The position numbers and the translations under genes are program-made. Of a stretch of DNA of 64,000 nucleotides, positions 4,867 through 40,031 are shown in pieces. Source of the DNA: an uncultured Candidatus Saccharibacteria bacterium. Lineage in GTDB: Bacteria > Patescibacteriota > Minisyncoccia > UBA6257 > WO2-44-18. Position 1 is the first letter of the stretch. Each line of letters starts with the position of its first letter. Below the pieces are notes generated by a model. It saw only the letters and a program-made list of their open reading frames with translations, was not told the DNA's origin and did not search any database. Location of the stretch: positions 18,824 through 82,823 of the forward strand of contig CAZWVU010000002.1 in assembly GCA_964637575.1 (NCBI GenBank), given 5' to 3'.

Positions 4867-4943
4867 CCGCGCTGCTCAAACCAAACCACCACCTCAAAAA
4901 ATCGCGAAAGAAAGAGCTACCGCCCTGCTCCACGGGGAGCGTT

Positions 4944-5013
4944 TCGGAGCCGATTCGGCTGGCCTGACGCATGGTTGCGTCAGAGCCGTCAGACGCCTTG
5001 CGAATCGGCGAGA
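4944..5013 (+). repeat. structured repeat family 2, copy A (core), inside a ~220-bp ORF-less region upstream of the tuf promoter
   Basis: tcggagcCGATTCGGCTGGCCTGACGCATGGTTGCGTCAGAGCC...GCCTTGCGAATCGGCGAGA; near-identical core at 39887-39955; perfect 8-bp hairpin ctgacgca/tgcgtcag; GATTCG pairs with CGAATC. Confidence 0.6.
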
Positions 5014-5091
5014 ACCAGGCGACTTTTGCCGCGGGAGCAAAAGGACGCCGTGCTCCCGAGGAGCTGGGGTGGCAGCTTATCCCTCCACCCC

Positions 5092-5120
5092 TTGACACTA
5101 AAGCTACTTCTTATATACAA
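5092..5120 (+). promoter_or_regulatory. candidate promoter for tuf (TTGACA -35, TATACA/ATACAA -10)
   Basis: TTGACA at 5092-5097, A/T-rich -10 candidates 16-17 nt downstream; follows terminator and structured region, 65 nt upstream of tuf. Confidence 0.35.
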
Positions 5121-5188
5121 TCTCTGTATTGTTAATTATTAGAAAAAGTCGCGAATTTTTATTACAAAAATATAAACGTTAGAAGATT

Positions 5189-6391
5189 ATGGCAGAAAAG
5201 GAGAAATTTCAGAGGACTAAACCTCACGTAAACGTCGGAACTATCGGTCACGTCGACCACGGGAAAACCACGCTCAGCGCGGCGATTACCCATGTCGCGT
5301 CTTTGCTCGGTCGGGGTAAGGAAAAAGCGTACGCAGATATCGCCAAAGGCGGTACCGTCCGCGATGACAGCAAAATCGTCACCATCGCGGTGTCGCACTT
5401 GGAATACGAATCCGAGAAGCGCCACTATGCGCACATCGACTGCCCCGGGCACGCCGATTACATTAAAAACATGATCACGGGTGCCGCGCAGATGGACGGC
5501 GCCATTCTGGTGGTGTCCGCTGTGGACGGCCCGATGCCTCAGACCCGCGAGCACATTCTTTTGGCCCGTCAGGTCGGCGTTCCTTCCATTGTAGTGTTCC
5601 TGAACAAGGTTGACCTCGTTTCTGACAAGGAACTTGTTGACCTCGTGGAAGCCGAAGTCCGCGAACTTTTGAAGAAGTACGAGTATCCGGGCGATACGAC
5701 CCCGATTATCCGCGGTTCCGCGTTGGCGGCGCTGAATGCCAAGTCCGCCACGGATGAGGGCGCGAAGCCGATCCTTGATTTGATGAAAGCGCTGGATGAA
5801 TTCATTCCGGAACCGGTCCGCGATACCGCCAAGCCGTTCCTGATGGCGATCGAAGATATCTTCTCGATTGAAGGCCGTGGCACCGTAGTCACCGGCAAGA
5901 TTGAGCGTGGCATGTGCAAACTGAACGAAGAAGTGGAAATTATCGGTCTTCGTCCGAATATGAAGTCGGTAATCACCGGCATCGAAATGTTCAACAAACT
6001 GATGGATGAAGGACGTGCTGGCGACAATGTCGGTCTCTTGATGCGCGGTTTGAAGAAAGAAGATGTGGAGCGCGGCCAGGTAGTTGCCAAGCCGGGTTCC
6101 GTGGTTCCGCACACCGAATTCGAAGCGGAAGTCTACATTTTGAGCAAAGACGAAGGTGGCCGCCATACTCCGTTTTTCAAGGGATACAAGCCGCAGTTCT
6201 ATATCCGCACGACCGATGTTACCGGCGAGGTAACCTTGCCGGCGGGAATGGAAATGGTAATGCCGGGTGATACCATTCAGTTTGCTGTGAAACTGATCGC
6301 GCCGGTAGCGCTGGAAGATAAGCAGCGCTTCGCCATCCGCGAAGGCGGCAAGACCGTCGGTGCCGGTGTCGTTACCAAAATTACGAAATAA
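5189..6391 (+). CDS. tuf: translation elongation factor Tu
   Basis: 400 aa; [41 protein letters not shown] motifs. Confidence 0.98.
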
Positions 6392-6416
6392 TAATCTCAG
6401 AACACCGCTCTTTACT

Positions 6417-6743
6417 ATGGCCAAACAAAAGGAAGAACAGGAGAAGCTTCGCCTGCGCATCAAAGCGTATGACAGCAAGCTGATCGATAATTCCGCGAAG
6501 CAGATCGTGGACACCGCGAAGCGGCACGATGCCGAGGTAATCGGCCCGATTCCGCTTCCGACGGAGATGAAGAAGTACACGGTCAACCGTTCCACCTTCG
6601 TGCACAAGAATTCCCGGGAGCAGTTTGAACTCCGGGTGCATAAGCGTCTGATCGACATTCTTAATCCCAACCAGGGATTGATCGAGTCCCTTTCGCACCT
6701 GAATCTTCCTTCCGGTGTGGACATAGAAATCAAGATGGTCTAA
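6417..6743 (+). CDS. rpsJ: 30S ribosomal protein S10
   Basis: Start chosen at [19 protein letters not shown] (ATG 6417) just after tuf stop; S10 fold sequence; the longer 6360 ORF overlaps tuf. Confidence 0.9.
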
Positions 6744-6756
6744 CCGATGATACAGC

Positions 6757-6782
6757 AAGAGCCCCGCATCCGCGGGGCTCTT
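6757..6782 (+). promoter_or_regulatory. perfect 11-bp stem/4-nt loop hairpin between rpsJ and rplC (not followed by U-tract)
   Basis: aagagccccgc-atcc-gcggggctctt; 107-nt gap between S10 and L3 is unusually long for this operon. Confidence 0.5.
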
Positions 6783-6850
6783 GCGTTATAAGCGGCGTTT
6801 GTGTAGAATAGTAATCACTGTGTTTATTTTATTTCCACTTCAGGGAACAC

Positions 6851-7270
6851 ATGGAAAAACTTATTGGAAAAAAGTTAAAAATGGATCAGGTATTTGTGGG
6901 CGACAAAGTTTTCGGCGTAACCCCGGTAAAAATCGAAACGGGTAATTTTGAGTCCGTGAAGGCAGGCGATCTCGTCGAAGTCAGCGGCATCAACAAGGGC
7001 CGGGGATTTCAGGGCGTCGTTAAGCGTCACGGTTTTCACGGCGGACCGCGCACACACGGTCAGAAAAACCGCCATCGGGCGCCGGGTTCCATCGGCAACA
7101 CTACTCCTCAGCGCGTCATTCCCGGACGGCGCATGGCCGGTCACATGGGTATGGAGCGGATTACCAGCAAGAATATCAAGGTGGTGGAAATCAACGCGGA
7201 AAATAAAATTTTGTTTCTCAACGGCGCGGTTCCGGGATACAAAGGAAATAAAGTTGAGATTTATAAATAA
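6851..7270 (+). CDS. rplC: 50S ribosomal protein L3 (short form, 139 aa)
   Basis: N- and C-terminal L3 blocks ([10 protein letters not shown]..., [15 protein letters not shown]..., [23 protein letters not shown]) present; ~70 central residues of typical L3 absent. Confidence 0.9.
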
Positions 7271-7276
7271 ACTCCG

Positions 7277-7882
7277 ATGAAAGCCCAGGTCTACAATTTA
7301 AAAGGCGACGTGGTGGGGGATATTGAACTCTCCGACAAAATTTTCGCCCGCGAGTGGAATGCCGACCTGGTGCATCAGATCGCGCTGTCGCAGGCGGCCA
7401 ACCGCCGGCTTCCCTGGGCGCATTCTAAAAACCGCGGCGAAGTGCGCGGTGGCGGCGTGAAGCCGTGGAAACAGAAACATACCGGCCGCGCCCGTCACGG
7501 CTCCATCCGTTCTCCTATCTGGAAAGGCGGCGGTGTTACCCATGGACCGGTTGTTGAGCGCGATTACTCCAAGAAAGTGAATAAAAAAATGCTTCGGGTA
7601 GCGATCCATTCCGTGCTCTCCAAGAAATTGGCCGAGGGCCAGTTGCGGATCGTGGATTCCCTGCAAATTGAAGCTCCGAAAACGAAGCTCATGTTCAACG
7701 CGGTCAAAAGCCTTCTGCCGGCGCTGCTCGTTCCGGAAACCAAGCATTCCCAGATGGTGGGCCGCGCGTCCCGCAACATCCCGAAAGCGAAGTCACTGAA
7801 CGGCGCGTCCATTAACGTTGAGGATCTGTTGCGCTATAAAAATATCCTGCTCGAAAAAAACGCGGTGGCGGAAATTAAATAA
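7277..7882 (+). CDS. rplD: 50S ribosomal protein L4
   Basis: 201 aa; L4 sequence and position. Confidence 0.93.
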   Translation: MKAQVYNLKGDVVGDIELSDKIFAREWNADLVHQIALSQAANRRLPWAHSKNRGEVRGGGVKPWKQKHTGRARHGSIRSPIWKGGGVTHGPVVERDYSKKVNKKMLRVAIHSVLSKKLAEGQLRIVDSLQIEAPKTKLMFNAVKSLLPALLVPETKHSQMVGRASRNIPKAKSLNGASINVEDLLRYKNILLEKNAVAEIK

Positions 7883-7883
7883 T

Positions 7884-8165
7884 ATGGACAAGACCATCAT
7901 CAAGAACCCGATCATCACTGAAAAAGCCACGATGCTCAGCGCCGACCGCAAGTACGTGTTTTTGGTTGCCAACCATGCCACCAAGCCGGAAATCAAAAAA
8001 GCGCTTCAACATATCTATAAGGTGAATGTGGAAAACGTCCAGGTAGTAAATACCCGTCCGAAACCCCGGCGCATGGGCGCTCACACGAACCTGAAGCCGG
8101 GATACCGGAAGGCGATCGTCACCCTGAAAGAAGGTCAGAAATTGGATGTCCTGCCGCACGCATAA
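7884..8165 (+). CDS. rplW: 50S ribosomal protein L23
   Basis: Start at MDKTIIKNPIITEKA (ATG 7884) right after L4 stop; L23 sequence. Confidence 0.9.
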   Translation: MDKTIIKNPIITEKATMLSADRKYVFLVANHATKPEIKKALQHIYKVNVENVQVVNTRPKPRRMGAHTNLKPGYRKAIVTLKEGQKLDVLPHA

Positions 8166-8179
8166 TATCCACTAATTTT

Positions 8180-9013
8180 ATGAAGCAATTTAAACCCACA
8201 AGTCCGTCACGGCGCCAGATGACCACCGTTCCTTACCGGGAGCTGATCACGACCCGCGAGCCGCACAAGCAGCTGACGATGCGTCTCCGCACCAACGCCG
8301 GCCGCAATAACCGCGGTGTCATTACCACGCGTCATCAGGGCGGCGGCAACAAAAAAATATACCGTGTCGTGGATTTTCTTCAGAATAAAGTAGGTATTCC
8401 GGGCCGGGTGGAAACCGTTGAGTATGATCCGTACCGCAGCGCCTTCATCGCGTTAATTTCCTACAAAGACGGGGAGCGCCGCTATATTCTGGCGCCGAAG
8501 GATCTTAAAGTGGGAGACATGATCGTGACCGCGGAGCAGGCTGAACTGAAACCAGGCAACCGGCTGAAGATCAAAAATGTTCCGGTCGGCTACCAGGTCC
8601 ATAATGTGGAAATCCGCGCGGGAGGCGGCGCCCGCCTGGCCCGCTCCGCCGGCGCCTATGCCGAAGTGCTCGCCCATGAAGGCGGCCTTACCGACCTCCG
8701 TCTTGGCTCCAAAGAAATCCGCAAGGTTTCTTCCGAAGGCTGGGCTTCCATTGGACAAGTTTCCAATCCTGATTATAATCTTACGAATATCGGAAAAGCC
8801 GGCCGTTCCCGCTGGCTGGGCATCCGCCCGACTGTGCGAGGCACGGTCATGAATCCGGTAGATCATCCGTACGGTGGCGGTGAAGGCAAACAGCCGCGTG
8901 GCACCAAGCGTCCGAAGACAATGTGGGGCAAGATTACCGGCGGCCGGAAGACCCGTCACGCGAAAAAGTGGTCGTCCAAATGGATCGTCCAGCGGCGTCC
9001 GAAAGTCCGCTAA
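8180..9013 (+). CDS. rplB: 50S ribosomal protein L2
   Basis: 277 aa; ...NPVDHPYGGGEGK... hallmark. Confidence 0.97.
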   Translation: MKQFKPTSPSRRQMTTVPYRELITTREPHKQLTMRLRTNAGRNNRGVITTRHQGGGNKKIYRVVDFLQNKVGIPGRVETVEYDPYRSAFIALISYKDGERRYILAPKDLKVGDMIVTAEQAELKPGNRLKIKNVPVGYQVHNVEIRAGGGARLARSAGAYAEVLAHEGGLTDLRLGSKEIRKVSSEGWASIGQVSNPDYNLTNIGKAGRSRWLGIRPTVRGTVMNPVDHPYGGGEGKQPRGTKRPKTMWGKITGGRKTRHAKKWSSKWIVQRRPKVR

Positions 9014-9022
9014 TAAAATAAT

Positions 9023-9364
9023 ATGTCACGCTCAAGCAAAAAAGGTCCTTTCGTGGATCCAAAATTAATGAAGAAGATCTCCAGGCTGAAGACCGGCGAC
9101 AAGACGGTTATTAAGACGTGGTCGCGTGATTCGGAGATCGCGCCGGAAATGGTGGGCTTCACCATCGGGGTACACAACGGCAAATCCCACATCGAAGTGC
9201 TGATTAAGGAAGAGATGGTCGGTCACCGTCTGGGTGAGTTTTCTCCGACGCGCAAATTCGTAAAACATGGAGGTAAGATGCAGCGTGAATTGGAGGTCGC
9301 CGCGCAGGCCGCGGAAGCGCAGAAAGCCGCCGCCGCGAAAACCGCGCCTGAAGCCAAGAAATAA
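9023..9364 (+). CDS. rpsS: 30S ribosomal protein S19 with ~20-aa Ala/Lys-rich C-terminal extension
   Basis: [15 protein letters not shown]...GHRLGEF typical S19; extra tail ...[22 protein letters not shown]. Confidence 0.95.
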
Positions 9365-9375
9365 ATATATCGAGT

Positions 9376-9870
9376 ATGGCAATGCAAACCGCAAAACTTA
9401 ATTATCTGAAAATCGCCCCGCGTAAAGTACGGCTTATTGCCAATACCTTGAAGGGACTCTCGGTCAAGGAAGCGGAGGCCCAGCTGGTGCTCCGCATTCA
9501 GCGTTCCTCGGAGCCGCTGTTGAAACTGCTCCGTTCCGCGGTTGCCAATGCGAAAAATAATAAGCTGGATACCAGCAAACTTTTCATCAGCTCAATCCTC
9601 GTAAATCAGGGACCGATGCTCAAGCGGTTTATGCCGCGCGCCCAGGGCCGCGCCACTCCGATCCACAAGAAAATGAGCCACGTCGTCCTGACACTGTCCG
9701 AACAGGAACACGCATTCGTTGACCGCTTCGTGATCAATCCTCCCGCGAAAAAAGTGAAAGAAACCAAAGAACGGGCCAAACCGAAGGCCGAAGAAGTTAA
9801 GAAGGAAACCGCGACCGGAACCAAGAAGCCGGGACTCTTAAAGCGGATGTTCCGCCGGACGGCTGTATAA
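9376..9870 (+). CDS. rplV: 50S ribosomal protein L22 with basic C-terminal extension
   Basis: 164 aa; L22 core then KKVKETKERAKPKAEEVKKE... tail. Confidence 0.93.
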   Translation: MAMQTAKLNYLKIAPRKVRLIANTLKGLSVKEAEAQLVLRIQRSSEPLLKLLRSAVANAKNNKLDTSKLFISSILVNQGPMLKRFMPRAQGRATPIHKKMSHVVLTLSEQEHAFVDRFVINPPAKKVKETKERAKPKAEEVKKETATGTKKPGLLKRMFRRTAV

Positions 9871-9879
9871 CACACCAAT

Positions 9880-10578
9880 ATGGGAAATAAAACACGACCA
9901 TTTTCATACCGACTCGGCATTATCCACAACTGGAACTCCCGCTGGATGCCGAAAAATCTTAAATTCAAATCCCATCTTGAGGAGGATGTTTTGATCCGTG
10001 ACATCGTGAATGAAAAAATCGGCCTGGCCGGCATCGTCCGGATCGAGATCGAACGTTCCGCCGACAATTCCTTCCGCGTGAGCATCAAGGCCGCCCGTCC
10101 GGGTTTGGTGATCGGCCGTGGAGGCAAGGGCATCGAAGATCTGACCGCCGCGGTCCGCGCTCAATTAGAGAAACTGTTCCACAAGCGCAGCGGTACCACG
10201 AAGCCTGCAAAATTCGGCTTGAGCATCAATGTTGAAGAGCTGAAGCGGACGGACATTTCGGCCCAGTATGTCGCGCAATCCATTGCCTGGGATCTGGAGA
10301 AGCGTCTCCCGTTCCGCCGCACGATAAAGAGATACATTGAAAGCTCCCTTCAGAACCGCGAGGTGCAGGGCGTGAAAATCAAGCTTTCCGGCCGCTTGGA
10401 CGGCAATGAAATCGCCCGCCGCGAATGGCTTGCGAAAGGGAAACTCCCGCTGCAGACGCTCCGCGCCAACATTGATTACGGGGAAGCCACATCCTTTAAC
10501 AGCTACGGCACCGTCGGCGTGAAGGTCTGGCTTTACAAAGGCGAGGTGTTCGACAAGGACAATAAAAAGTCTGTATAA
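9880..10578 (+). CDS. rpsC: 30S ribosomal protein S3
   Basis: 232 aa; KH-domain S3 sequence, position. Confidence 0.95.
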   Translation: MGNKTRPFSYRLGIIHNWNSRWMPKNLKFKSHLEEDVLIRDIVNEKIGLAGIVRIEIERSADNSFRVSIKAARPGLVIGRGGKGIEDLTAAVRAQLEKLFHKRSGTTKPAKFGLSINVEELKRTDISAQYVAQSIAWDLEKRLPFRRTIKRYIESSLQNREVQGVKIKLSGRLDGNEIARREWLAKGKLPLQTLRANIDYGEATSFNSYGTVGVKVWLYKGEVFDKDNKKSV

Positions 10579-10583
10579 CAACC

Positions 10584-11003
10584 ATGCTTGTACCCAAAAA
10601 AGTAAAACACCGGAAATGGATGAAGGGCCGCTCCCGCTGGAGTCCCACTGAAACCCGCGGCACGAAATTGTCGTTCGGCAGTTTTGGTTTGAAGGCGGAG
10701 AGTATGGCCTGGGTAAATTCCCGTCAGATTGAAGCCGCCCGGCGCACCATCAGCAATTTCATTAAGCGCGAGGGAAAAGTCTGGATCCGCATCTTTCCCG
10801 ACAAACCGATTACGAAACGTCCGCCGGAACTTACAATGGGCGGCGGCAAGGGATCGGTGGATCACTACGTTTTTGCGGTAAAGCCGGGACGGGTTCTTTT
10901 TGAAATGGACGGAGTAAAGCCGGAAGTCGCCAAGCAGGCGCTCCGTCTGGCCGGGTTCAAACTGCCGTGCCGCACAAGAATAGTTGAAAAAGCAGCCCAC
11001 TAA
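10584..11003 (+). CDS. rplP: 50S ribosomal protein L16
   Basis: 139 aa; [16 protein letters not shown]... L16. Confidence 0.95.
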
Positions 11004-11004
11004 T

Positions 11005-11202
11005 ATGAAGAAAAAAGAACTGGAACAATTAAAAAGCAAACCGAAAGCGGAATGGGAAAAGAGTCTTGCGGAAAGCCGGGAGAAGCTTTGGGCCTTGCGC
11101 ACTGACCTCGCCGCGGGTAAGGTAAAGAACGTTAAAGAAATCAAGGAGGTCAGAAAAATGATTGCCCGCCTTCTCACCTTCATTAATCACACCAATGGAT
11201 AA
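11005..11202 (+). CDS. rpmC: 50S ribosomal protein L29
   Basis: Start at MKKKELEQLKSK (ATG 11005) directly after L16 stop; short helical L29. Confidence 0.85.
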   Translation: MKKKELEQLKSKPKAEWEKSLAESREKLWALRTDLAAGKVKNVKEIKEVRKMIARLLTFINHTNG

Positions 11203-11452
11203 GCAAATCGCCCAGGTTAAAAAGCGCACCCTTCAGGGAACCGTCGTTTCCGACAAAATGCAAAAGACGGTGGTGGTTTCGGTTACTCACGAAAAGAAAC
11301 ATCCCAAATACCTTAAGTATTACAAAGTTACCAACCGCTTTAAGGCCCATGATGAAAACAAGGAATATAAAGTGGGAGATAAAGTAACTATCGAAGAAAC
11401 CCGGCCGATGTCGAAAGACAAGCGGTGGAAAGTGATCGCTAAAATTTCGTAA
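11195..11452 (+). CDS. rpsQ: 30S ribosomal protein S17
   Basis: Start MDKQIAQVKKRTLQGTVVSDKM (ATG 11195, 8-nt overlap with L29); S17 sequence. Confidence 0.88.
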   Translation: MDKQIAQVKKRTLQGTVVSDKMQKTVVVSVTHEKKHPKYLKYYKVTNRFKAHDENKEYKVGDKVTIEETRPMSKDKRWKVIAKIS

Positions 11453-11461
11453 ACCAATTAT

Positions 11462-11830
11462 ATGATCCAGGAACGAGCCATCTTAAAAGTTGCCGACAAC
11501 ACCGGAGCCAAAACGGTCCGCTGTTTCCGCGTGCTCGGCGGCAGCCGCCGGCGCTACGCGGAAGTGGGGGATGTGATCATTGCCTCCGTGCAGACTGCCG
11601 AGCCGCGCAAGGCGATTAAGAAAAAAGACGTGGTCAAGGCGGTAATTGTCCGCCAGCGCAAAGCCATGCGCCGCGCCGACGGTTCATATATCCGTTTTGA
11701 CGACAACGCCGTGGTCATTATTGATGACAAGAAGGAGCCGAAAGGCACCCGCCTGTTCGGACCGCTGCCCCGCGAAGTCAAAGAGCGGGGATATGACTCC
11801 ATCGCTTCGATGGCCGAAGAAATTCTCTAA
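11462..11830 (+). CDS. rplN: 50S ribosomal protein L14
   Basis: 122 aa; [17 protein letters not shown]... L14. Confidence 0.96.
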
Positions 11831-11838
11831 CCATTACA

Positions 11839-12150: not shown

Positions 12151-12154
12151 AATA

Positions 12155-12664: not shown

Positions 12665-12666
12665 TT

Positions 12667-12852
12667 ATGGCCAAGAAATCAGTTGTCGCCCGAGCGTTAA
12701 AAAAGCCCAAGTTCTCAACCCGGATTGTCCGGCGCTGTTTTCGCTGCGGCCGTCGCCACGGATATATGCGGACATTCGGCGTATGCCGCATCTGTTTCCG
12801 GGAACTTGCGGGCCGCGGTGAAATTCCGGGTGTAAAAAAATCTTCCTGGTAA
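12667..12852 (+). CDS. rpsN: 30S ribosomal protein S14, zinc-binding type Z (61 aa)
   Basis: [24 protein letters not shown]: four Cys, short-form S14. Confidence 0.95.
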
Positions 12853-12859
12853 TACCAAT

Positions 12860-13243: not shown

Positions 13244-13252
13244 ATAAAAAAC

Positions 13253-13804: not shown

Positions 13805-13812
13805 CCACTGCC

Positions 13813-14166: not shown

Positions 14167-14169
14167 ACC

Positions 14170-14772
14170 ATGGAACAAACTACCCCAACAACTCAACAGA
14201 CTGAACAAAAACCCGCGGGAGCTGCCCCGGCAGCCGGCGGACGGCCAGGTTTCGGCCGGCCGGGAGCCGGAGGAAGACCCGGTTTTGGCGGGCGCCCGGG
14301 CGGTCCGCGGCGTTTTGGCGCGAAGCCGAAGGAGGTTTTGCCGATGGGACTGAAAGATAAAATGCTGGATCTGCGCCGCGTTACCCGCGTGGTTGCCGGC
14401 GGCAAGCGTTTCCGTTTCCGCGCGACGATCGTGCTCGGCAATGAAAAGGGCAAGCTGGGCATCGGCGTGGCCAAAGGATTGGACGTGCAGGCTGCGATCG
14501 CCAAGGCGAAGAACGCCGCGCTGAAGAACCTGATCGACATCAAACTCAAGGGCCGGACGATCCCGCACGAAGTGGAAGCGAAGTTCAGCGCCGCGCATGT
14601 CCGCATCAAGCCGGCGAGCGAAGGGCACGGTTTGAAGGCCGGCGGCGCGGTCCGTGTGGTCCTTTCCATGGCGGGCGTGAAGGATGTTACCGCCAAGTGC
14701 CTCGGCCGCACACCGAATAAACTGACCAACGCGCTCGCGACTGTGGAAGCGTTAAAAAACCTTAAGGTGTAG
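14170..14772 (+). CDS. rpsE: 30S ribosomal protein S5 with ~55-aa Gly/Arg/Pro-rich N-terminal low-complexity extension
   Basis: ...GGRPGFGRPGAGGRPGFGGRPGGPRRFG... (in-frame nucleotide repeats) then canonical S5 dsRBD and C-terminal domain. Confidence 0.93.
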   Translation: MEQTTPTTQQTEQKPAGAAPAAGGRPGFGRPGAGGRPGFGGRPGGPRRFGAKPKEVLPMGLKDKMLDLRRVTRVVAGGKRFRFRATIVLGNEKGKLGIGVAKGLDVQAAIAKAKNAALKNLIDIKLKGRTIPHEVEAKFSAAHVRIKPASEGHGLKAGGAVRVVLSMAGVKDVTAKCLGRTPNKLTNALATVEALKNLKV

Positions 14773-14782
14773 AATTAAAACC

Positions 14783-15178
14783 ATGCAATTACACGAACTC
14801 AAACCAGCCCATCCCTTAAAGGACAAGAAGCCGCGCGTCGGCCGCAGCGGCAAGCGTGGCACGACTTCCGGCAAGGGGCAAAAAGGACAAAAAGCGCGCG
14901 CGGGCCGCAAGATGCGTCCGGCAGAGCGTGATTTTTATATGCGCCTTCCGAAATTGCGCGGCGTGAAGAATAAGCCGAAGGAAGCTCCGTTAGAGGTTAT
15001 CAGCGTTGGCAATCTGGATCATTTCGCGAAGGACGGCGTGGTCAGCGAAAAAATACTTGGCCGCAAAGTGAAGGTTCTCGGTGACGGTGAAATCAAAACG
15101 AAAATTACCGTGGAAGGTCTTCCTGTTTCCGAGTCGGCGAAACAAAAAATAGAAGCCGCGGGCGGAAATGTTAAGTAA
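14783..15178 (+). CDS. rplO: 50S ribosomal protein L15 (follows S5 directly; no L30 gene)
   Basis: 131 aa L15; only 10 nt separate it from rpsE so rpmD is absent at its usual locus. Confidence 0.93.
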   Translation: MQLHELKPAHPLKDKKPRVGRSGKRGTTSGKGQKGQKARAGRKMRPAERDFYMRLPKLRGVKNKPKEAPLEVISVGNLDHFAKDGVVSEKILGRKVKVLGDGEIKTKITVEGLPVSESAKQKIEAAGGNVK

Positions 15179-16442: not shown

Positions 16443-16564
16443 GTTGGTTTTGTGTCGGTTGCGCTTTTGACCAGCTCCTCCTTCTCCTCGGCAGGACGTC
16501 GGGCTACAATCCTGCCTGTGGGAAAGAGGAGCTGGCCTTAACTTAACCCTTTCACAAAACCAAC
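16443..16564 (+). repeat. structured repeat family 1, copy 1 (core 16471-16535), nested in a 12-bp outer inverted repeat
   Basis: GTTGGTTTTGTG...CCAGCTCCTC-CTTCTCCTCGGCAGGACGTCGGGCTACAATCCTGCCTGTGGGAAAGA-GAGGAGCTGG...CACAAAACCAAC; begins 1 nt after secY stop. Confidence 0.8.
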
Positions 16565-29106: not shown

Positions 29107-29183
29107 TATGATGGAAAATGCGAGGTTGCGTGTTTTGAGGGAATATCTCGGAGCTTTCTTCTTTTAAAAATAAGAGCGAAGTT

Positions 29184-29243
29184 TTCTGCTTCTTCCCGCA
29201 GACAGGATTGTAGCCCGACGTCCTGTCGAGGAGAAGAACAGAA
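29184..29243 (-). repeat. structured repeat family 1, copy 2 (reverse orientation)
   Basis: reverse complement reads TTCTGTTCTTC-TCCTCGACAGGACGTCGGGCTACAATCCTGTCTGCGGGAAG-AAGCAGAA; between convergent GNAT and ychF genes. Confidence 0.8.
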
Positions 29244-29256
29244 GACGAGCGAATCC

Positions 29257-31693: not shown

Positions 31694-31752
31694 AGTTGCC
31701 AAAACCGCAATTTTTTAGTACTCTAAGCTCGGTTCGTTAAGAAAGGATTGCT

Positions 31753-33039: not shown

Positions 33040-33051
33040 ATTCATCCAAAA

Positions 33052-33077
33052 CCAGTGGACAACCCACTGGTTTTTTT
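33052..33077 (+). terminator. rho-independent terminator after thiolase
   Basis: ccagtgg-acaa-cccactgg + TTTTTTT. Confidence 0.7.
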
Positions 33078-33092
33078 GTACTATATCGGCGG
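33071..33092 (+). promoter_or_regulatory. conserved promoter/operator-like motif TTTTTTTGTACTATATCGGCGG
   Basis: Near-identical motif at 35229-35250 (TTTTTTTGTACTATAGCGTCGG), related one at 31688-31709; each directly after a terminator and ~30-45 nt before a beta-oxidation gene. Confidence 0.5.
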
Positions 33093-33110
33093 TACATTCA
33101 GAGGAGATTT

Positions 33111-35199
33111 TATGAAATTCTGGAAGGCGGAGATCGACAACGCGGAGCACGCGGTGCTCACGCTGGACCTCGGTCCGGAGGAAAAGCAGAACAAGCTGCG
33201 GGTGGGAGCGATCGAGGAGCTTGATGAATTTCTCAAGTCCAACATCCTGAATTCGCTCGTGATCTGCTCGGCCAAGCCGGACAGTTTCTGTGCCGGCGCC
33301 GACATCGAGGAAATCCGGGAAGCATTCCGGCACCCCGAAGAAGTCAACGCGCTTTTTGCCCGGATTGACAGTATCGCCGATCGTCTTCTCAACGCCCCGT
33401 TCCCTTCTGTCGCCGCGATCAGCGGTGCCACATTGGGAGGCGGCCTTGAACTGGCGATGATGTGCACCGAGCGGATCGCCGTGGATACGCCGAAGACGGT
33501 TTTCGGCCTGCCCGAGACGTCGCTCGGCATCATTCCCGGATTCGGCGGCACGCAAACCTTGCCCCGGATCGTGGGGCTGCGGAAAGCTGCGGAAATTATT
33601 CTCGGCGGGGCTTTCAAAAAGCTTTCGGCCAAGGATGCATTGAAATGCGGCCTGATCTCAAAGATCGTCAACTTCCCCAGCACGTTGCTGGAAAGCGCCA
33701 GGGAACGCGTCCGGCATCTCGGATCGTCCGGGTATCGAAATGGCGCAAGACATACCCCCGGCATTGAAAAGATTCCCTTCTTCGGCCGCCGGATGATTCT
33801 GAAAGGTGCCAAAACGCAGACGCTCCGCCTGACAAAAGGCGTCTATCCGGCGCCGTTGAAAGCGATTGAGGCGATGCGCAAAAGTGCCTGCAGTTTCAGT
33901 ACTGGACTGGCCAACGAACACCGGCTTTTCAAGGAATGCCTGAGAACGGATGAGGCGAAAAGCCTGATCAGTCTCTACTTCCTTCGGGAAGAAGCGCGGT
34001 CAAAGAAATGGGTGGATGCACCGCCGCAGGCTCCGCCGAAACGGCTGGGCGTGATCGGCGCCGGAAACAAAGGTCAGGGCATGGGCAAAGGAATCGCCTA
34101 TGCCGCAATCTCGGCCGGCATCCCGACCCTCCTTCACGACGTGAGCCCTGACAATCTCCATGATGCCGTCGTGCTTATTGGAAAATCGTTGATGGCCGAA
34201 GTGAAGAAGGGCAAACTGACGGCAGATCAGGCGAATGCGCGGCTCGGACTCCTCTCCTGGAGCTATGGCACGCGCTACGAAAGTTTCCCCGGCTGCGATT
34301 TCGTGATCGAGGCGATCACCGAAAACCTGCAGTGGAAACATGATCTGCTCGGAACGCTCGGGCTTATGCTTCCGGAGTCAACGGTGGTTGTCACCAACAC
34401 CTCTTCCCTGCTTCCGAGCGAAGTGGGCAAGTCGTTCCCGTGGAAAGAGAGTTTCGCGGCGATGCATTTCTTCAATCCGGCAGAGAAGATGGAGCTGGTG
34501 GAAATCGCCGGCACGCCGGACACGAAACCGGAGACGATCGCAAGAGCGCTGACGCTTACCAGAATGCTCGGCAAGACCCCGGTCGTCCTGGACAAGGAAT
34601 GCGCGGGACTCGTGGTCAACCGGATCCTGCTCCGCGGCGTCGGCCGTGCATTCACGGAAACCTTCCGCCACGGCGTGAATCCCTGGCTGATCGACGAAGC
34701 ACTGGAACATACCGGCTGCGCGATGGGCCCGTTCAAAACATCGGACCAGGTCGGATTCGACACGGCCGCCCACGTCCTGAAGATCATGTCCGAATGCTAT
34801 CCGGCAAACTATCCGGAAACGATCAAGGACCTGAACCTGGCCGGCAATAAAAACGTGCTGGGCAAAAAGACCGGCCGCGGGTTCTACTTTTGGAAGGACG
34901 ACAAAGTCCTCAAACCGAACGCCGACATTTTCTCCGACCTCCAGATACCCTTCGACCGGCAGAACATCGAGGCCACTGCTGCGTTTGCCGCAACCGAAGT
35001 GATGGTTGAAATGCGGCGGGAAGCGCTCGACCTGATCAGCGAAGGCGTCCTGAAATCCGGCGATATGATCGATCTCGCGATGATCCTCGGCGCCGGCATC
35101 TGTCCGAACCACCGCGGCATCCTCGGCCTGCGGGAAAAAGTGGAACTGCCGAAGCTCTCCGAATCCGAGGAGCTCGACCTCCGCAAGCTCTCACCATAA
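33111..35199 (+). CDS. bifunctional enoyl-CoA hydratase / 3-hydroxyacyl-CoA dehydrogenase (FadB/FadJ-like)
   Basis: Crotonase motifs (CAGADI, GGGLELAM, GLPETSLGIIPGFGGTQ) then NAD-binding GVIGAGNKGQGMG; start at MKFWKAE (ATG 33111, RBS ggagga). Confidence 0.85.
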
Positions 35200-35207
35200 A
35201 ACCCAAA

Positions 35208-35235
35208 CCGCACTTTACATAAGTGCGGTTTTTTT
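35208..35235 (+). terminator. rho-independent terminator after fadB-like gene
   Basis: ccgcactt-tacat-aagtgcgg + TTTTTTT, immediately followed by GTACTATAGCGTCGG motif. Confidence 0.7.
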
Positions 35236-35281
35236 GTACTATAGCGTCGGAACTTTCACATCTCATTTTTGGAGGAAATGT

Positions 35282-37363
35282 ATGGGACTCGATGTCGGAA
35301 AGCAGTTGGGTGCCGGCGCCGCGATTGCCGAGGAAACCCGTGGTAATGAGCGGTTGTCCGGTCTGATGGCCAAACTCTTCAAGGGAAAACTGGATATGAA
35401 CCAGCTTTTCCGATGGAAAGAAAGGGAACGACCGGAAAATCCGAATGTCGCGAAGATGTGCGCGAAGCTCGCGCAGTTTCTGATCCACGATGTGGACGCG
35501 GAATTGATCGAGCGGACGCACGCGATTCCACCCCCGGTGGTGAAGTGGCTCTGTGACAACAACTATTTCGGCCTCAAAATTCCGGAAGAGTACGGCGGCA
35601 TGGGATTCGCCCAGTCGGAGTATATGAAAGTGCTCCAGCTCGCCGCTACCTACTCGGGAGCCATCGTGGCGCTCCTTTCGGCGTCGAATACGATCGGCGC
35701 CGGCTGGCCGGTGATGGCCTATGGATCGCCGAAACAAAAAAATAAGTGGCTGCCCATGCTCGCGAAGTGTCCGTCGGCGTTCGCCTTTACCGAGGAGAAG
35801 GCCGGCTCGGATCCTTCTGCGATGGAGACGGTGGCAATCCGGGTCTACGAGGATCCAAAAGCCCCTGAGCCGTATGAGTGGGAAATGGAAAGGCCAAGGG
35901 CCATTGGCTATCGCCTTTACGGCCGGAAGTGGTGGACCACCAACGGTCCTTCCAGCGCCGCCGCCTTCATCTCGCCGGTGATCATTGTGATCGCGAAGAT
36001 CGTGAACGAACCGGACGAGCTGAAGATGAACGCCGGAAACAAGGATTACAAACCCTGCTTCGGCGCCTTCATCGTCCCGACCAATGCCGAAGGAATCAAG
36101 ATTGTTCAACGCTGCGAGTTCGCCGGGCTTCATGGCATCTACAATGGCATCACTGATTTCGAGAACTGCTACGTTCCGCGTGAGCAGCTGCTCGGCAAGA
36201 AGGTGGTGCGGCTTCATGAAGATGCCAGCGCATACCTAAACGCCCGGCAAAAGTTGGGTTACGAGCCCGATGCCGACGATGAAGTCGAAATGTTCTGCGA
36301 AGAAGGTTCGGGCTTCAAGATCGCGCTGGAAGCGCTGAACAGCGGGCGGATCACGCTCGCCGGTTCCTGCGTGGCGATGGCGAAGAACTGCGTCTCCGCC
36401 GGCAAGTGGTGGGGCAACACGCGATTCCAGTGGGGCAAACTCATCGGTCAGCATGAGGCGGTCGGCAGCGGCATTCTCGTGAATGACCTCGCCACCACCT
36501 TCGCGCTGGAAGCGATGATCTGGTACGCCGCTCTGCAAGCGGATGAGCACCGTGATTGCCGCATGGAAGCCGCCACCTGCAAGGTCCTGGCGTCCGAACG
36601 CGCCTATCAAATCGCCGACAATTTCCTGCAGATGCGCGGCGGACGCGGCTACGAAACCGCCGCATCGCTGGCACAGCGCGGCGAAGCGCCGCTGCCGGCG
36701 GAACGCTGGTGGCGCGACGCGCGCATCAACCGCATCTTTGAGGGAGAGTCCGGCACCCTGCTCCGCATGTTCGTCGTCCGCGAAGGGCTGAACGACTATA
36801 TGGAGCGCGGCAAGATCTTTTTTGAAAAGGATCACCGCTGGCAGAAATTGAAAACGGCCGCCGGATTCGGCATGGACCTCATGTCCAACCGGATCCCGGG
36901 TTCACTGGGCGCCATGCCTCATGTGCACACCCTGCTCAAGCCGCACCTCCGGTTCATTGAGAAGAGCGCCCGCCGGCTCGCCAACGCGATCATTCTCGCG
37001 TCGGGAAAGCACCGGCACAAGCTGCCCAACAAACAGCTGACGCTCCGCCGGATCTTCGAGATCGCCGCCGAGCTGTACGCCATGGCAACCGCCTGCTCGT
37101 ACGTCGCCTGGCTGAAGGAACACTTCGACCACGTGAACGAACACAATGCGGGGCTTTGGAATAACCGCTTCGCGCAGCTCGCGAATCTCTATTGCCTGGA
37201 AGCCCGGAAACGGGTTGAGCAGGAATTCGCGGCGCTTGCCTCCAACAGTGATGCCGAAGCCCGCGGGGTCGCGAAGGACCTTCTCGGGGGCGGCATGGAC
37301 GCCTGGGTCAAGGACAATATCGTTCCGACCGTGGACACCCTCGGCCTCGAAAGGAAAGAGTAA
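35282..37363 (+). CDS. acyl-CoA dehydrogenase (long form)
   Basis: 693 aa; ACAD N/middle/C domains (…GMGFAQSEYMKV…FAFTEEKAGSDPSAM…FEGESGTLLR…); start at MGLDVGKQ (ATG 35282, RBS ggagga). Confidence 0.85.
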   Translation: MGLDVGKQLGAGAAIAEETRGNERLSGLMAKLFKGKLDMNQLFRWKERERPENPNVAKMCAKLAQFLIHDVDAELIERTHAIPPPVVKWLCDNNYFGLKIPEEYGGMGFAQSEYMKVLQLAATYSGAIVALLSASNTIGAGWPVMAYGSPKQKNKWLPMLAKCPSAFAFTEEKAGSDPSAMETVAIRVYEDPKAPEPYEWEMERPRAIGYRLYGRKWWTTNGPSSAAAFISPVIIVIAKIVNEPDELKMNAGNKDYKPCFGAFIVPTNAEGIKIVQRCEFAGLHGIYNGITDFENCYVPREQLLGKKVVRLHEDASAYLNARQKLGYEPDADDEVEMFCEEGSGFKIALEALNSGRITLAGSCVAMAKNCVSAGKWWGNTRFQWGKLIGQHEAVGSGILVNDLATTFALEAMIWYAALQADEHRDCRMEAATCKVLASERAYQIADNFLQMRGGRGYETAASLAQRGEAPLPAERWWRDARINRIFEGESGTLLRMFVVREGLNDYMERGKIFFEKDHRWQKLKTAAGFGMDLMSNRIPGSLGAMPHVHTLLKPHLRFIEKSARRLANAIILASGKHRHKLPNKQLTLRRIFEIAAELYAMATACSYVAWLKEHFDHVNEHNAGLWNNRFAQLANLYCLEARKRVEQEFAALASNSDAEARGVAKDLLGGGMDAWVKDNIVPTVDTLGLERKE

Positions 37364-37370
37364 TACCCAA

Positions 37371-37398
37371 AGGACTGGTTAAAACCAGTCCTTTTTTA
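37371..37398. terminator. bidirectional terminator
   Basis: aggactggtt-aaa-accagtcct + TTTTTT; minus gene 37379..37741 ends within it. Confidence 0.65.
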
Positions 37399-37741
37399 AT
37401 TGTTCAAGAATATCATCCGGAATTGGTATCTGCTTGCCCGGTTTCGATTTTCCCGGATAGCGCCAGGCGGAGATCATGATCTTTTTCGGTCCGCCGAAGC
37501 GCGGCGTAATGCGGGCGCCCTCTTCCGTGGTTGCGTACATTACCCATATTTCTTCTTTACGTTTCGGCGTATCGTTCCGCTTCATCGCCGCGAGCGTGCT
37601 CGGCGCGACGCCCTCCTCTTTCCGGTCGGGAGTCTTCAGGATTGTCTTAATTTTCTGTTCGGAAATACGGTAAAACAGCATTTTGTTCTTAATGTGCGAC
37701 GTCCAGCGGTACTGGGAATCATTTTTAGGGAATTTGATCAC
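37379..37741 (-). CDS. hypothetical protein (120 aa)
   Basis: ORF with basic composition, no family recognised. Confidence 0.45.
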   Translation of the reverse strand: MIKFPKNDSQYRWTSHIKNKMLFYRISEQKIKTILKTPDRKEEGVAPSTLAAMKRNDTPKRKEEIWVMYATTEEGARITPRFGGPKKIMISAWRYPGKSKPGKQIPIPDDILEQLKKDWF

Positions 37742-37762
37742 GATTGAAGTATACTATAAATA

Positions 37763-39667
37763 ATGCAATTTCTGGTGCGTTTTTTTAATCGCCTTCGGCA
37801 TGTTCTTATCTGGGGAATTCTCGGAATTATAGCACTTGCATCGGCGCTTTTTATGTTTACCGCGTCGCACGGCGACGCGCCGATCGTTGACGAACAGCCG
37901 CATATTGCCGCGGGATACAGTTATCTCCGTTATTTTGATGCCCGGCTCAATCCGGAGCATCCTCCGCTGGTGAAAATGCTTGCCGGATTTCCCCTCCTTT
38001 TTCAGGGACTGAATTTCCCGGTTGCCGGCGATGCCTGGCGGAATGGAATCAATGAACAGTGGACGCTCGGTTCGGATTTCCTCTATGACAGCGGCAATAA
38101 CCCGGATGCAGTGGTTGGTTGGGCACGCCTCGGTCCGATGCTGCTGACGCTGATCCTTATCATCGCCGTCTACGCCTGGTCGAAAGAACTGCTGGGCCGC
38201 TGGTGGGCCCTGCTTCCTTCATTTCTGATTGCCTTCTCGCCCACGTTTCTCGCCCACGGGCATTATGTCACGACCGATGTCGGCGCCACCCTCGGGATCT
38301 TTCTCGCGACCGCCGCCTTCCTGAATTTCCTTTTCAGTCCTTCGCGAAAGCATCTGATCTGGGCCGGCCTTGCCTTCGGTCTGGCGCAATTGGTGAAATT
38401 TTCGGCCTTTCTCCTCGTTCCTTATTTCATACTCCTGATGACGGTTTTTTATGCAGTAAGCGTGGCGCGCGACTGGAAGATGACCGATCCACAGCGCGGA
38501 CGCCTCCGCCGCTTTGCCATGCGCTTCTGGAAATACTTCCGTTCGCTTTTTATTATATTCCTGATCGGATTCGCGATGGTCTATATTGTCTACTTTTTCC
38601 TCGTCTGGAATTATCCGCGTGACAAACAGGTTGCCGACACCGGCGCCATTCTGGCATCTTTCAGCCCGCGCACCTTGCCCGCGGTCACCCTCTGGCTCGC
38701 CAATGTTCCGGTGCTCAGGCCGATCGCGCAGTATCTGCTGGGGCTTTTGATGGTTTTGCAGCGTTCCAGCGGCGGGAACACGATTTATTTCCTCGGCAAT
38801 GTCTCCGGCGGCGGATCGCCGCTGTATTTTCCGCTGGTGTTTCTCATGAAAGAACCGGTCGCGTCATTGATTATGATCTTCTTTGCGATCGGTTATTCAA
38901 TCTACGGATTGGTCCGCAGTTCCGCTTCGGCGATCGCGCGCCGCTCATTCCGGATTGCCGAATACCTCACCACAAACTTCGCCGAATTCGCCCTCCTGCT
39001 CTTCGTGGGTATCTATTGGACGTCGAGCGTTTCCAGCCACCTGAACATCGGCATCCGGCATATCCTCCCCACGCTGCCATTCATCTACATTCTCACGGCG
39101 GGCGCGATCAAACGCTGGTTCAGCATCAAAAATCTGGATGCGGTACAGAATTTTGCCCTGAAAATTTTTATTGTCTACCGGGAACTGATCAGCGTTTCTC
39201 TGAAATCGGCGGCGCTGGTCGTTTTGATTGTCTGGTATGTGCTTTCCGCGTGCGTCACGGCGCCTTATTTCCTTTCTTATTTTAACTTCCTCGCGGGGGG
39301 CACACACTACGGGTACCAGTATGTCACCGACTCCAACTACGACTGGGGGCAGGATTTGAGACGGCTGGCCTCATGGGCTGATCAGAATCTTCCGCCCGGA
39401 GAAAAAATCGCCGTGGATTACTTTGGCGGCGGCCGGCCGGGTTATCATCTCGGCAACCGCGAGGTGGACTGGTGGTCGTCAAAAGGCAGTCCGGCGAATG
39501 AAAATATCCGGTGGCTTGCCGTTTCTATCAACACTATCCAGCAGGCCAAGGGCACGCTCGCACCCGACCAGCCCCGAAAACCCGAAGACGAATACCGCTG
39601 GCTCACCGACCCGTATCATCCTTTCGCCCGCGCCGGCACCTCCATCTTTATTTATAAACTTCAGTAA
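37763..39667 (+). CDS. GT-C glycosyltransferase, family 39 (PMT/ArnT-like), second paralog
   Basis: 634 aa, polytopic; ...GDAPIVDEQPHIAAGYSYL...EHPPLVKMLAG... characteristic first periplasmic loop of PMT_2/ArnT enzymes. Confidence 0.7.
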   Translation: MQFLVRFFNRLRHVLIWGILGIIALASALFMFTASHGDAPIVDEQPHIAAGYSYLRYFDARLNPEHPPLVKMLAGFPLLFQGLNFPVAGDAWRNGINEQWTLGSDFLYDSGNNPDAVVGWARLGPMLLTLILIIAVYAWSKELLGRWWALLPSFLIAFSPTFLAHGHYVTTDVGATLGIFLATAAFLNFLFSPSRKHLIWAGLAFGLAQLVKFSAFLLVPYFILLMTVFYAVSVARDWKMTDPQRGRLRRFAMRFWKYFRSLFIIFLIGFAMVYIVYFFLVWNYPRDKQVADTGAILASFSPRTLPAVTLWLANVPVLRPIAQYLLGLLMVLQRSSGGNTIYFLGNVSGGGSPLYFPLVFLMKEPVASLIMIFFAIGYSIYGLVRSSASAIARRSFRIAEYLTTNFAEFALLLFVGIYWTSSVSSHLNIGIRHILPTLPFIYILTAGAIKRWFSIKNLDAVQNFALKIFIVYRELISVSLKSAALVVLIVWYVLSACVTAPYFLSYFNFLAGGTHYGYQYVTDSNYDWGQDLRRLASWADQNLPPGEKIAVDYFGGGRPGYHLGNREVDWWSSKGSPANENIRWLAVSINTIQQAKGTLAPDQPRKPEDEYRWLTDPYHPFARAGTSIFIYKLQ

Positions 39668-39862
39668 TTTTCCCGCCCTCTCCCCGAAGCTCTTCTCTTA
39701 CCCGCTCGCTACCGGCCTCGCTCGCTTACGCGATTTTTCCACATACGGATATATAACTAAAGGTTAATGATCCCGAAAAAATCGCTGCTCGCTTCTGGGT
39801 AACGCTCGGGGATGCGTTCAGAGCTTCGGGGAGGGGCTGACGCTCCATGCTACTGAGGCTAT

Positions 39863-40015
39863 CCAGGAAATTCCGTAGGGAATATCTCGGAGCTGATGCG
39901 GCTGGCCTGACACATGGTTGCGTCAGAGCCAAGGGTGCCTTGCGCATCGGCGAGAGCTAAGTGGTGCGCGAGGCCGCTGAAGCCGAGCGACACCCGGTTC
40001 CCGGGAATTTCCTGG
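39863..40015 (+). repeat. structured repeat family 2, copy B, bounded by 12-bp inverted repeat CCAGGAAATTCC / GGAATTTCCTGG
   Basis: Core 39887-39955 tcggagcTGATGCGGCTGGCCTGACACATGGTTGCGTCAGAGCC...GCCTTGCGCATCGGCGAGA matches 4944-5013 with compensatory change (GATTCG/CGAATC vs GATGCG/CGCATC); lies in 364-bp gap between convergent genes. Confidence 0.65.
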
Positions 40016-40031
40016 GTGGCCTGCAGGTAAG

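Follow-up and report, generated by a model that had tools for sequence, protein, structure and literature searches.

Structured intergenic repeats of a Patescibacterium, kept by compensatory changes and possibly akin to REP/BIME or BOX elements

Two related intergenic elements, copies A and B, occur in a 64,000-nt stretch of DNA from an uncultured Candidatus Saccharibacteria bacterium (assembly GCA_964637575.1, contig CAZWVU010000002.1, positions 18,824 to 82,823; hereafter the window, whose coordinates are used throughout). A first-pass annotation, made from the letters alone, had described them as a structured repeat in two copies that shares parts with another repeat family of the same stretch. 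We refer to A, B, and their relatives as family 2 and to the other repeats as family 1. Our analysis leads us to interpret A and B as members of a modular, structure-selected, and previously uncatalogued family of intergenic repeats resembling REP/BIME or BOX elements, an interpretation to which we give an even chance. It is drawn from the elements being multi-copy, strictly intergenic, and present in either orientation, from the existence of empty syntenic sites, remnants, and mosaics, and from the lack of a predicted σ70-type promoter. Other contigs are labelled L001 to L020, among which L012, L017, and L020 are Logan contigs from the same organism as the window.

A repeat search of the window recovered the cores of A and B as a direct-repeat pair (4935-4987 and 39878-39930) with 87% identity over 53 nt. 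The 31-mer GGCTGGCCTGACGCATGGTTGCGTCAGAGCC is found at 4957 with no mismatch and at 39900 with one, and only in these two places, for a chance expectation of 0.00. The cores are thus a genuine repeat. The core of ~70 nt had been regarded as the unit of the repeat, which turned out to be too short, since the folds reveal a three-way junction of ~165-175 nt in A and in B (~150-175 nt across all full family-2 copies). In each full copy the junction is enclosed by a long and near-perfect closing stem of ~17-26 bp, and its arms are the core hairpin domain and a second hairpin with the conserved loop CGYNGRA. The core arm is made, in this order, of P1, an internal loop (5'-G(C/G)A opposite 3'-GA), P2, a GCUGG-type bulge, and an apical hairpin. 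The sequence of the closing stem is different in every copy: CCGCCCUGCUCC…GGAGCUGGGGUGG in A, CCAGGAAAUUCC…GGAAUUUCCUGG in B. A 12-bp inverted repeat had been said to enclose B, and it lies exactly at 39863-39874 and 40004-40015, but it is merely a part of the ~22-bp closing stem of this copy, and such a stem is a feature of every copy. The fold of copy A (4905-5095) has an energy of -93.6 kcal/mol (z = -4.2) and that of copy B an energy of -99.6 kcal/mol (z = -7.1). We used three models in the searches: R1 is a covariance model of the core, R2 was made from family-2 sequences only and has just P1 and P2 annotated, and R3 is full-length. The two copies and their parts are the following.

4914-5078, forward strand: copy A, the whole element, with the closing stem around the three-way junction (128 bits with R3; fold).
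4914-4941, forward strand: 5' arm of the closing stem of copy A, pairing with 5052-5078 and unrelated in sequence to its counterparts in B, C, and D, the last two being described below (fold).
4943-5014, forward strand: core of copy A, with P1, internal loop GGA/GA, P2, GCUGG bulge, and hairpin CUGACGCA-UGGU-UGCGUCAG (fold, covariation).
5018-5049, forward strand: hairpin 2 of copy A, with the conserved loop CGCGGGA (fold, six-copy alignment).
5052-5078, forward strand: 3' arm of the closing stem of copy A (fold).
39853-40026, forward strand: copy B, the whole element, between two convergent genes 364 bp apart (112 bits with R3; fold).
39853-39883, forward strand: 5' arm of the closing stem of copy B, including CCAGGAAATTCC and an inner GGGAAU segment (sequence, fold).
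39886-39955, forward strand: core of copy B, whose hairpin CUGACACA/UGCGUCAG has an A·C mismatch (fold, covariation).
39962-39994, forward strand: hairpin 2 of copy B, with the loop CGCUGAA (six-copy alignment).
39997-40026, forward strand: 3' arm of the closing stem of copy B, GUUCCC followed by GGAAUUUCCUGG (sequence, fold).

The hairpin CTGACGCA-tggt-TGCGTCAG, attributed initially to both copies, is exact in A; B reads CTGACACA, hence the A·C mismatch on the forward strand.

Family 2 extends beyond A and B, as we found four further members. Copy C (L001 874-1033, minus strand) was the sole match of a hairpin-pattern scan of the JGI metagenomes. Its contig is unrelated to the window, having 45% GC compared with 54%, and comes from another organism; the copy lies between convergent lepA and NYN-domain genes and has a 26-bp closing stem and a fold z of -7.2. 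Copy D (L017 6790-6942) belongs to the same organism as the window and lies ~400 nt beyond its end, again between convergent genes. Its hairpin CUGGCGCA/UGCGCCAG shows an A-U to G-C compensation, and its P2 differs. With model R1 we identified two weaker members in close relatives, L003 8491-8611 and L002 812-943, both on the minus strand, in which the scaffold is that of A and B and the apical hairpin is different. None of the three models found further members in the relatives L005-L008, L011, and L015. Hence, the organism has at least three family-2 copies and not two. In the ~77 kb available from it, there are three full family-2 copies (A, B, and D), five family-1 copies, and one truncated family-2 remnant, all of them intergenic, and additionally a family-1-like variant at the end of L017. 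Three Logan contigs of this organism end inside such elements (B, D, and, for L012, family-1 copy 3), which is expected where long exact k-mers recur in a genome.

We aligned the six family-2 copies (A, B, C, D, and the L002 and L003 elements), which come from four organisms. RNAalifold independently predicts the three-way junction from this alignment, with 47 pairs. Among these, 32 are changed on both sides, compared with 14.0 ± 2.5 in shuffled alignments and 6-11 when the partners are slid, and 91.1% of the cells form a standard pair (72.9 ± 1.8% shuffled, 36-49% with slid partners). Not one of 500 shuffles reached the observed value on any measure. The P2 flanking helix has 100% of its cells paired and double changes in 7 of its 10 pairs. 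The compensatory change from U-A in A to G-C in B that had been pointed out in this helix is real, and the four further copies support it. Structural covariation in additional copies had been suggested as a check of the initial proposal, and it is present on the six sequences, which shows a structured repeat kept by compensatory changes. Among the unpaired positions, the internal loop between P1 and P2 (5'-G(C/G)A opposite 3'-GA), the GCUGG or GMUUGG bulge after P2, the CGARGGNRAAG strand after the core arm (from which A and B deviate), and the hairpin-2 loop C-G-Y-N-G-R-A, with its consensus in 6/6 copies, are invariant or nearly so.

Family 1 shares the junction motif of family 2. Read on the opposite strand, it has the form UUCCCGCAG-(A/G)CAGGA-UUGUAGCCCGACG-UCCUGN-CGAGGAGAAG, i.e., the junction motif of family 2 around a small inner hairpin. 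The motif common to both families is UCCCGCAG-helix-CGAGGAG (CCCGCAG…CGAGG), and family 1 is the single-hairpin version of it (CCCGCAG-[inner hairpin]-CGAGGAG). Model R2 matches all four family-1 copies of the window in the motif orientation (E = 0.012, 0.61, 1.2, and 6.9) and the family-1 copy of L020 with E = 1.9e-4. The family-1 copies and the family-2 pieces next to them are listed here.

16471-16535, reverse strand: family-1 copy 1, a single hairpin UCCCACAG-GCAGGA-UUGUAGCCCGACG-UCCUGC-CGAGGAG (repeat search, R2).
29138-29182, forward strand: truncated family-2 remnant adjoining family-1 copy 2 on its upstream side, with a 5' part GGGAAUAUCUCGGAGC that is exact, followed by a short AU hairpin and AGCGAAG (R2 E = 0.0016; weak with R3, E = 0.55).
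29182-29245, forward strand: family-1 copy 2 (R2 E = 0.012).
47176-47244, reverse strand: family-1 copy 3, within which L012 ends (repeat search, R2).
55171-55193, forward strand: tentatively, a possible family-2 5' fragment GGGAAUUUCCUCGGGCUGACUCG abutting family-1 copy 4 (~19/25 columns equal to the 5' part of B in a hand alignment; not significant with the models).
55193-55259, reverse strand: family-1 copy 4 (repeat search, R2).

The module preceding B does recur beside family-1 copy 2, as the 16-mer GGGAATATCTCGGAGC is found exactly at 29139-29154. The 'GGGAATTTCC' module reported near family-1 copy 4 is also present, but at 55171-55180 and not at 55160, and its match is the weaker one given in the list. 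With the common junction motif, the R2 matches, and the remnant, the view that the two families have parts in common stands. Within family 2, the modules of a given copy do not have the same relatives. The apical domain is 80-88% identical among A, B, C, and D (86-88% for C against the three others), and that of L002 and L003 is only 26-39% identical to them. For hairpin 2, C is 91% identical to L002 and D is 72-75% identical to C and L003, with A and B having a different hairpin 2. Such incongruent identities make up a mosaic pattern. Furthermore, the hairpin-2 loop (CCGCNG|GAG) looks like a family-1 junction without the inner hairpin, and the closing stem of A has CGAGGAG at its inner end. 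These short motifs suggest a nested, recursive build of the elements. Just 5' of the closing stem of B, at 39800-39845, there is another hairpin, GGAUGCGUUCAGAGC…GGCUGACGCUCC, whose two arms are similar to the halves of the core hairpin of family 2 and which is possibly what is left of another, decayed family-2 copy.

Two observations concern family 1 only. A GAGCG(A) direct repeat flanks several family-1 copies on both sides, at approximately 29169-29181/29245-29253 in the window, 9825-9832/9893-9899 and 8382-8389/8318-8326 in L005, and 2671-2677/2729-2735 in L020; copies 1, 3, and 4 lack it. Possible origins are a flank conserved in one subfamily, a preference for certain targets, and a short duplication. 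In L017, positions 14708-14926 (~72.3-72.5 kb on the scale of the window) have a tRNA-Gln and a terminator followed by GGGAAU, CCGCAG, and GCGAGGGG motifs, up to the contig end …CCUGCAGGAAAUUUACUUGUAGCC. The region seems to be a variant of family 1 in which the inner helix differs.

The presence of the elements at a given site varies between related genomes. Upstream of tuf, L008, L003, and L002, whose EF-Tu is respectively 96, 95, and 94% identical to that of the window, have ~15-20 nt between the terminator and the -35 box and thus an empty site; the window has ~215 extra nt containing copy A, and L005 (91% EF-Tu identity) has a family-1 element in the same orientation as A. We do not claim that this element and A are orthologous, as the similarity of their flanks does not exceed that of shuffles (299 and 167 of 2000 reached the observed scores). 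On the 3' side of fusA, the stop codon of the window leads directly to the terminator, and the same interval holds a family-2-type element in L003 and a family-1 element in L005, both on the strand opposite to fusA. The native terminator of fusA is kept beside the insertion. We had considered that the closing stems could originate from terminator hairpins already present, which is excluded by the empty fusA site of the window: it shows that the whole stem was inserted. Hence, two shared sites are occupied by a family-1 element in one genome and by a family-2 element in another. For the locus of copy B, a single related genome was available, with 74% identity in the neighbouring protein, and it lacks the copy. 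We infer that this turnover may be caused by mobility of the elements. As a separate observation, the tuf promoter of the window reads …CTAAAGCTACTTCTTATA TACAAT in its spacer and -10 box, and the relatives L003, L005, L008, and L002 share GGTTTTGAG TATACT; the change directly adjoins the insertion of copy A.

The positions of A and B had been described correctly. Copy A has a terminator (4837-4862) on one side and the tuf promoter (5092-5121, TTGACA-18-TACAAT, 11/12 consensus positions) on the other, and B lies in the 364-bp gap 39668-40031 between convergent genes, one for a glycosyltransferase of the PMT_2 family (Pfam PF13231) and one for a protein of 243 aa without Pfam match. A scan of both gaps predicted no σ70-type promoter driving A or B. 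In the gap of A it returned only the tuf promoter and, on the minus strand, two terminator-like sites, and in the gap of B no terminator-like site. Of the two sites near A, one is a separate hairpin (4837-4862) and the other, of five pairs (4926-4913), overlaps the 5' closing arm; their count is within the shuffle range (mean 1.2) and neither follows the closing stem. The elements have no fixed orientation. A, one of the two L005 elements (the one upstream of tuf), the L020 family-1 copy, and family-1 copy 4 are oriented with their neighbours, and the L002, L003, and other L005 elements against them, while B, C, D, and family-1 copy 2 are in convergent gaps. Three elements (A, the tuf-upstream one of L005, and the L020 family-1 copy) come after a terminator and before a promoter, and two (in L003 and L005) are in the 3' untranslated region of fusA.

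Some of these locations could be expected of elements acting in cis on transcript ends, as U-tract-independent terminators, blocks to 3' exonucleases, or barriers between convergent units, with the conserved motifs being incidental. The four elements between convergent genes, the lack of any other terminator-like site in the gap of B, the L003 and L005 elements in the fusA 3' untranslated region, and the very stable folds given by both strands are all consistent with such a role. Yet, the three elements sitting past a good intrinsic terminator and before the next promoter are needed by no messenger RNA, fusA keeps its own terminator beside the insertion, and relatives with empty sites do without the element. 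Moreover, a plain stabiliser needs neither invariant loops nor a three-way junction nor an apical domain 80-88% identical across organisms. We regard this explanation as improbable. Intrinsic terminators proper were rejected because no U-tract follows the closing stem.

The comparison with known families returned no counterpart. No match at the gathering threshold was found in the whole window with Rfam 15, which includes 6S, SRP, tmRNA, riboswitches, and ribozymes, and ARAGORN found no tRNA or tmRNA gene in the window, so the initial proposal is not contradicted by any known RNA. Searching A, B, D, and family-1 copy 3 against Rfam at E up to 10 produced only far sub-threshold and unrelated matches (microRNA precursors, leader, riboswitch, viral, and long non-coding RNA models). 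Pattern scans of viral sequences had no match, and the distant blastn search of copy B matched no plasmid or phage. By inspection, the hammerhead core CUGANGA…GAAA…UH is absent, the junction strands being AU(A/G)UC, CGAGGGNRAAG, and CUG, and no Rfam hammerhead model matches; inspection of the conserved strands likewise led us to reject a K-turn or a box C/D motif at the junction. Structured interspersed repeats are a known kind of element, but this family itself is in none of the libraries searched, and neither Rfam nor full-text literature searches gave a description of such interspersed repeats in Patescibacteria. The family is narrow, being found in a small clade of Patescibacteria (Paceibacteria-like metagenome-assembled genomes). 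For the EF-Tu of the window, the best matches are entries of Patescibacteria, Harrisonbacteria, and Paceibacterota, and a 100% identical one lies on an NCBI contig of 149,835 bp.

Small, non-coding, intergenic, and multi-copy elements with inverted-repeat ends, whose presence differs between relatives, could also be miniature inverted-repeat transposable elements (MITEs) derived from an insertion sequence, i.e., non-autonomous DNA transposons with conserved terminal inverted repeats and a transposase encoded elsewhere. We consider this very improbable. The terminal repeats of A, B, C, D, and the L002 and L003 elements are unrelated in sequence, even between copies of one genome, and they covary instead of being conserved. 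Neither a target-site duplication at the empty/filled fusA site nor a transposase gene in the scanned or annotated stretches of the organism was found, and no relative of the elements turned up in plasmid, phage, or viral collections. A classical MITE was rejected because of the unconserved terminal repeats and the missing target duplication.

The REP, BIME, and REPIN elements of Proteobacteria are a closer model. They are extragenic, multi-copy hairpins whose fold is kept by compensatory change and which are mobilised by RAYT, a Y1 HUH transposase. They may point either way and may be combined as mosaics or lie next to one another, their presence varies between related genomes, and they have no classical terminal inverted repeats or target duplications. 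The elements described here share the extragenic location, the multiple copies, the compensated hairpins, the mixed orientation, the mosaics, the variable presence, and the lack of classical terminal inverted repeats and target duplications, and their hairpin-forming units are found both alone and in mosaics (the remnant with family-1 copy 2 at 29138-29245). They differ in that their units are of 65-175 nt against ~35 nt, branched, with long and copy-specific closing stems. A short (~20-40 nt) palindrome with GTAG at its 5' foot, as in REP, was not found: there is no GTAG at the foot of the hairpins, and GUAG is present only within the family-1 loop. The family is also rare in databases, and no RAYT gene is found among the window proteins scanned.

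BOX (boxA-boxB-boxC), RUP, and SPRITE of Streptococcus pneumoniae, ERIC, and Correia elements are modular intergenic repeats of ~100-200 nt that form long stem-loops when transcribed, lie near genes in both orientations, and have uncertain functions. Compared by description, the sequences of their modules are conserved, including the pairing arms, whereas conservation in the present elements is limited to loops and junctions, the arms covarying; the host is also different, being a reduced-genome Patescibacterium. The attC sites of integrons are structure-recognised too, with two short helices, a conserved unpaired spacer, a variable terminal structure, and strand-specific function. The resemblance lies in the short helices around a conserved unpaired spacer and in recognition based on structure and not on sequence, which for our elements is a proposal. 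Unlike attC sites, our elements are not in cassette arrays, have mixed orientation, and are found among tuf, fusA, and secY, and no integrase is present among the proteins scanned or annotated here. We rejected an attC assignment, as no R''/R' boxes (RYYYAAC…GTTRRRY) are evident by inspection, a pattern search not having been made, and as the copies are solitary, of mixed orientation, and among housekeeping genes. Finally, the elements resemble 6S RNA, Y RNA, and hammerheads in having their ends paired in a long helix, conserved junction or loop nucleotides, and covarying helices, and they differ from these in being multi-copy with remnants, in lacking a predicted σ70-type promoter for A and B, and in having no Rfam match.

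If the elements are indeed of the REP/BIME or BOX kind, they would spread or persist as selfish or semi-selfish DNA repeats, by analogy with these families. Selection would act on the fold of one strand and on a few single-stranded motifs, which are probably the recognition site of a putative trans-acting protein. Under such selection for fold and loops, stems are proposed to drift by compensatory change and loops to stay fixed. New copies would land, or be tolerated, only in transcriptionally harmless gaps, namely from a stop codon to its terminator, from a terminator to the next promoter, or between convergent genes. Modules would be exchanged or nested between copies, giving rise to mosaics.

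Several results weigh against this interpretation. There is no transposase, recombinase, or reverse transcriptase among the scanned or annotated proteins of the window and the Logan stretches (~77 kb), and the window genes scanned or annotated are housekeeping ones (ribosomal proteins, Mur ligase, FtsW, MraY, aminoacyl-tRNA synthetases, and the type IV coupling protein). No target-site or flank duplication is visible at the empty/filled fusA site, which is a single clean site where divergence could hide a very short one. No two copies have a closing stem in common, so a recent copy-and-paste event is not documented. A, B, and D resemble copy C, which comes from another organism, just as much as they resemble one another; with between-genome similarity equal to within-genome similarity, bursts within a genome are not evident. 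The family-2 hairpin pattern has no match in 185,579 GTDB genomes and one, copy C, in the JGI metagenomes, and the family-1 core is found in the same GTDB genomes only in that of L005, at its two known sites. This is fewer than one would expect of a successful mobile element. A combination of conserved loops and covarying stems, such as is seen here in organisms of 45% and 54% GC, is also the classic signature of a functional RNA. And the strand carrying the motifs has a more stable fold than its complement in 10 of the 11 elements, which hints at a strand-specific, possibly RNA-level, role.

The elements could accordingly be paralogous small structured RNAs, cut from a host transcript (e.g., by RNase III acting on the closing stem) and acting in trans as ribonucleoprotein scaffolds, decoys, or catalytic RNAs, with the loops and bulge as functional or protein-binding sites. 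This explanation, which we judge unlikely, draws on the strong covariation, the invariant unpaired nucleotides in four organisms of differing GC, the better fold of the motif strand, the near-perfect closing stems of ~17-26 bp, which resemble processing stems, and the equal similarity within and between genomes, as would be the case of old paralogues under purifying selection. It has to contend with the absence of a predicted σ70-type promoter for A or B and with the L003 and L005 elements being antisense within the fusA unit, whose transcript, the only obvious one, carries the complement. It also implies ~8-10 copies, plus truncated remnants, per ~77 kb of a streamlined genome, at sites that are not conserved in the nearest relatives. 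The strand specificity is weak: a hand count of the alignment gave 11 G·U pairs against ~7 A·C mismatches, the minimum-energy folds have 31 G·U pairs in sense and 26 in antisense, so that wobble pairs do not decide the strand, and the energy asymmetry alone favours the motif strand. The first-pass annotation had left the choice open between mosaic BIME-type elements and a modular small-RNA family. The former fits better and the latter less well, considering that no σ70-type promoter is predicted for A or B, that the orientation is not fixed, and that there are empty syntenic sites and decayed remnants.

A bolder possibility, which we hold tentatively and find rather doubtful, is that the elements are a new, self-nesting, structure-recognised class of genetic element, or an RNA product, specific to Patescibacteria. 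A basic hairpin module with the loop motif CCGCNG|GAG would take other hairpin modules into its loop, which would give the single-hairpin family 1, the family 2 with two modules in a three-way junction, and copies like A. A putative protein would then read the internal loop, the bulge, and the hairpin loop on one strand; alternatively, the product may be a new ribozyme or ribonucleoprotein RNA.

We made a few other observations in these sequences. A third hairpin repeat family, GUCAUUGCGAUCCC-stem-loop-GGGAGAAGCAAUCUUA, has copies at 55313-55368 of the window and at 44-100 of L020. The aligned 85-nt stretches are 83% identical and have compensatory and wobble changes (CCCUCACAUAG/CUAUGUGAGGG against CCCACGCAUAG/CUAUAUGUGGG). 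In the S7-fusA gap, positions 1474-1513 are an overlapping palindromic tandem TATAGGACGTACAAGTCC…, within which L020 ends, suggesting that it is also repeated in the genome. A shared leader of ~43 nt (GGTTTTTTTGTACTATA…) lies at 31709-31751, 33069-33111, and 35227-35269, directly upstream of three consecutive genes encoding a thiolase, an enoyl-CoA hydratase/3-hydroxyacyl-CoA dehydrogenase, and an acyl-CoA dehydrogenase. This leader may act as a promoter or operator common to the three. Such a β-oxidation gene set is unusual for a Patescibacterium. In the related metagenome-assembled genome GCA_964620435.1 (L015 7279-7377), a run of N lies between duplicated sequence (…catatcgtcacctcacgttcaaaaatctgactagatattacctaaatttacc on both sides), which is an artefact of a scaffolding gap.

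Patescibacteria, or Candidate Phyla Radiation, have gene-dense genomes of ~1 Mb. If the elements are mobile, they would be a repeat family selected for shape and not for sequence in the streamlined genome of a symbiont, and the protein mobilising them would be worth finding. If they are RNAs, they would constitute a new class of multi-copy structured RNA, whose covariation is unusually well supported for so small a number of sequences. In either case, they break the short-read assemblies of these organisms, as the three contig ends illustrate, and they mark sites of genome plasticity beside core genes such as tuf, fusA, and secY.

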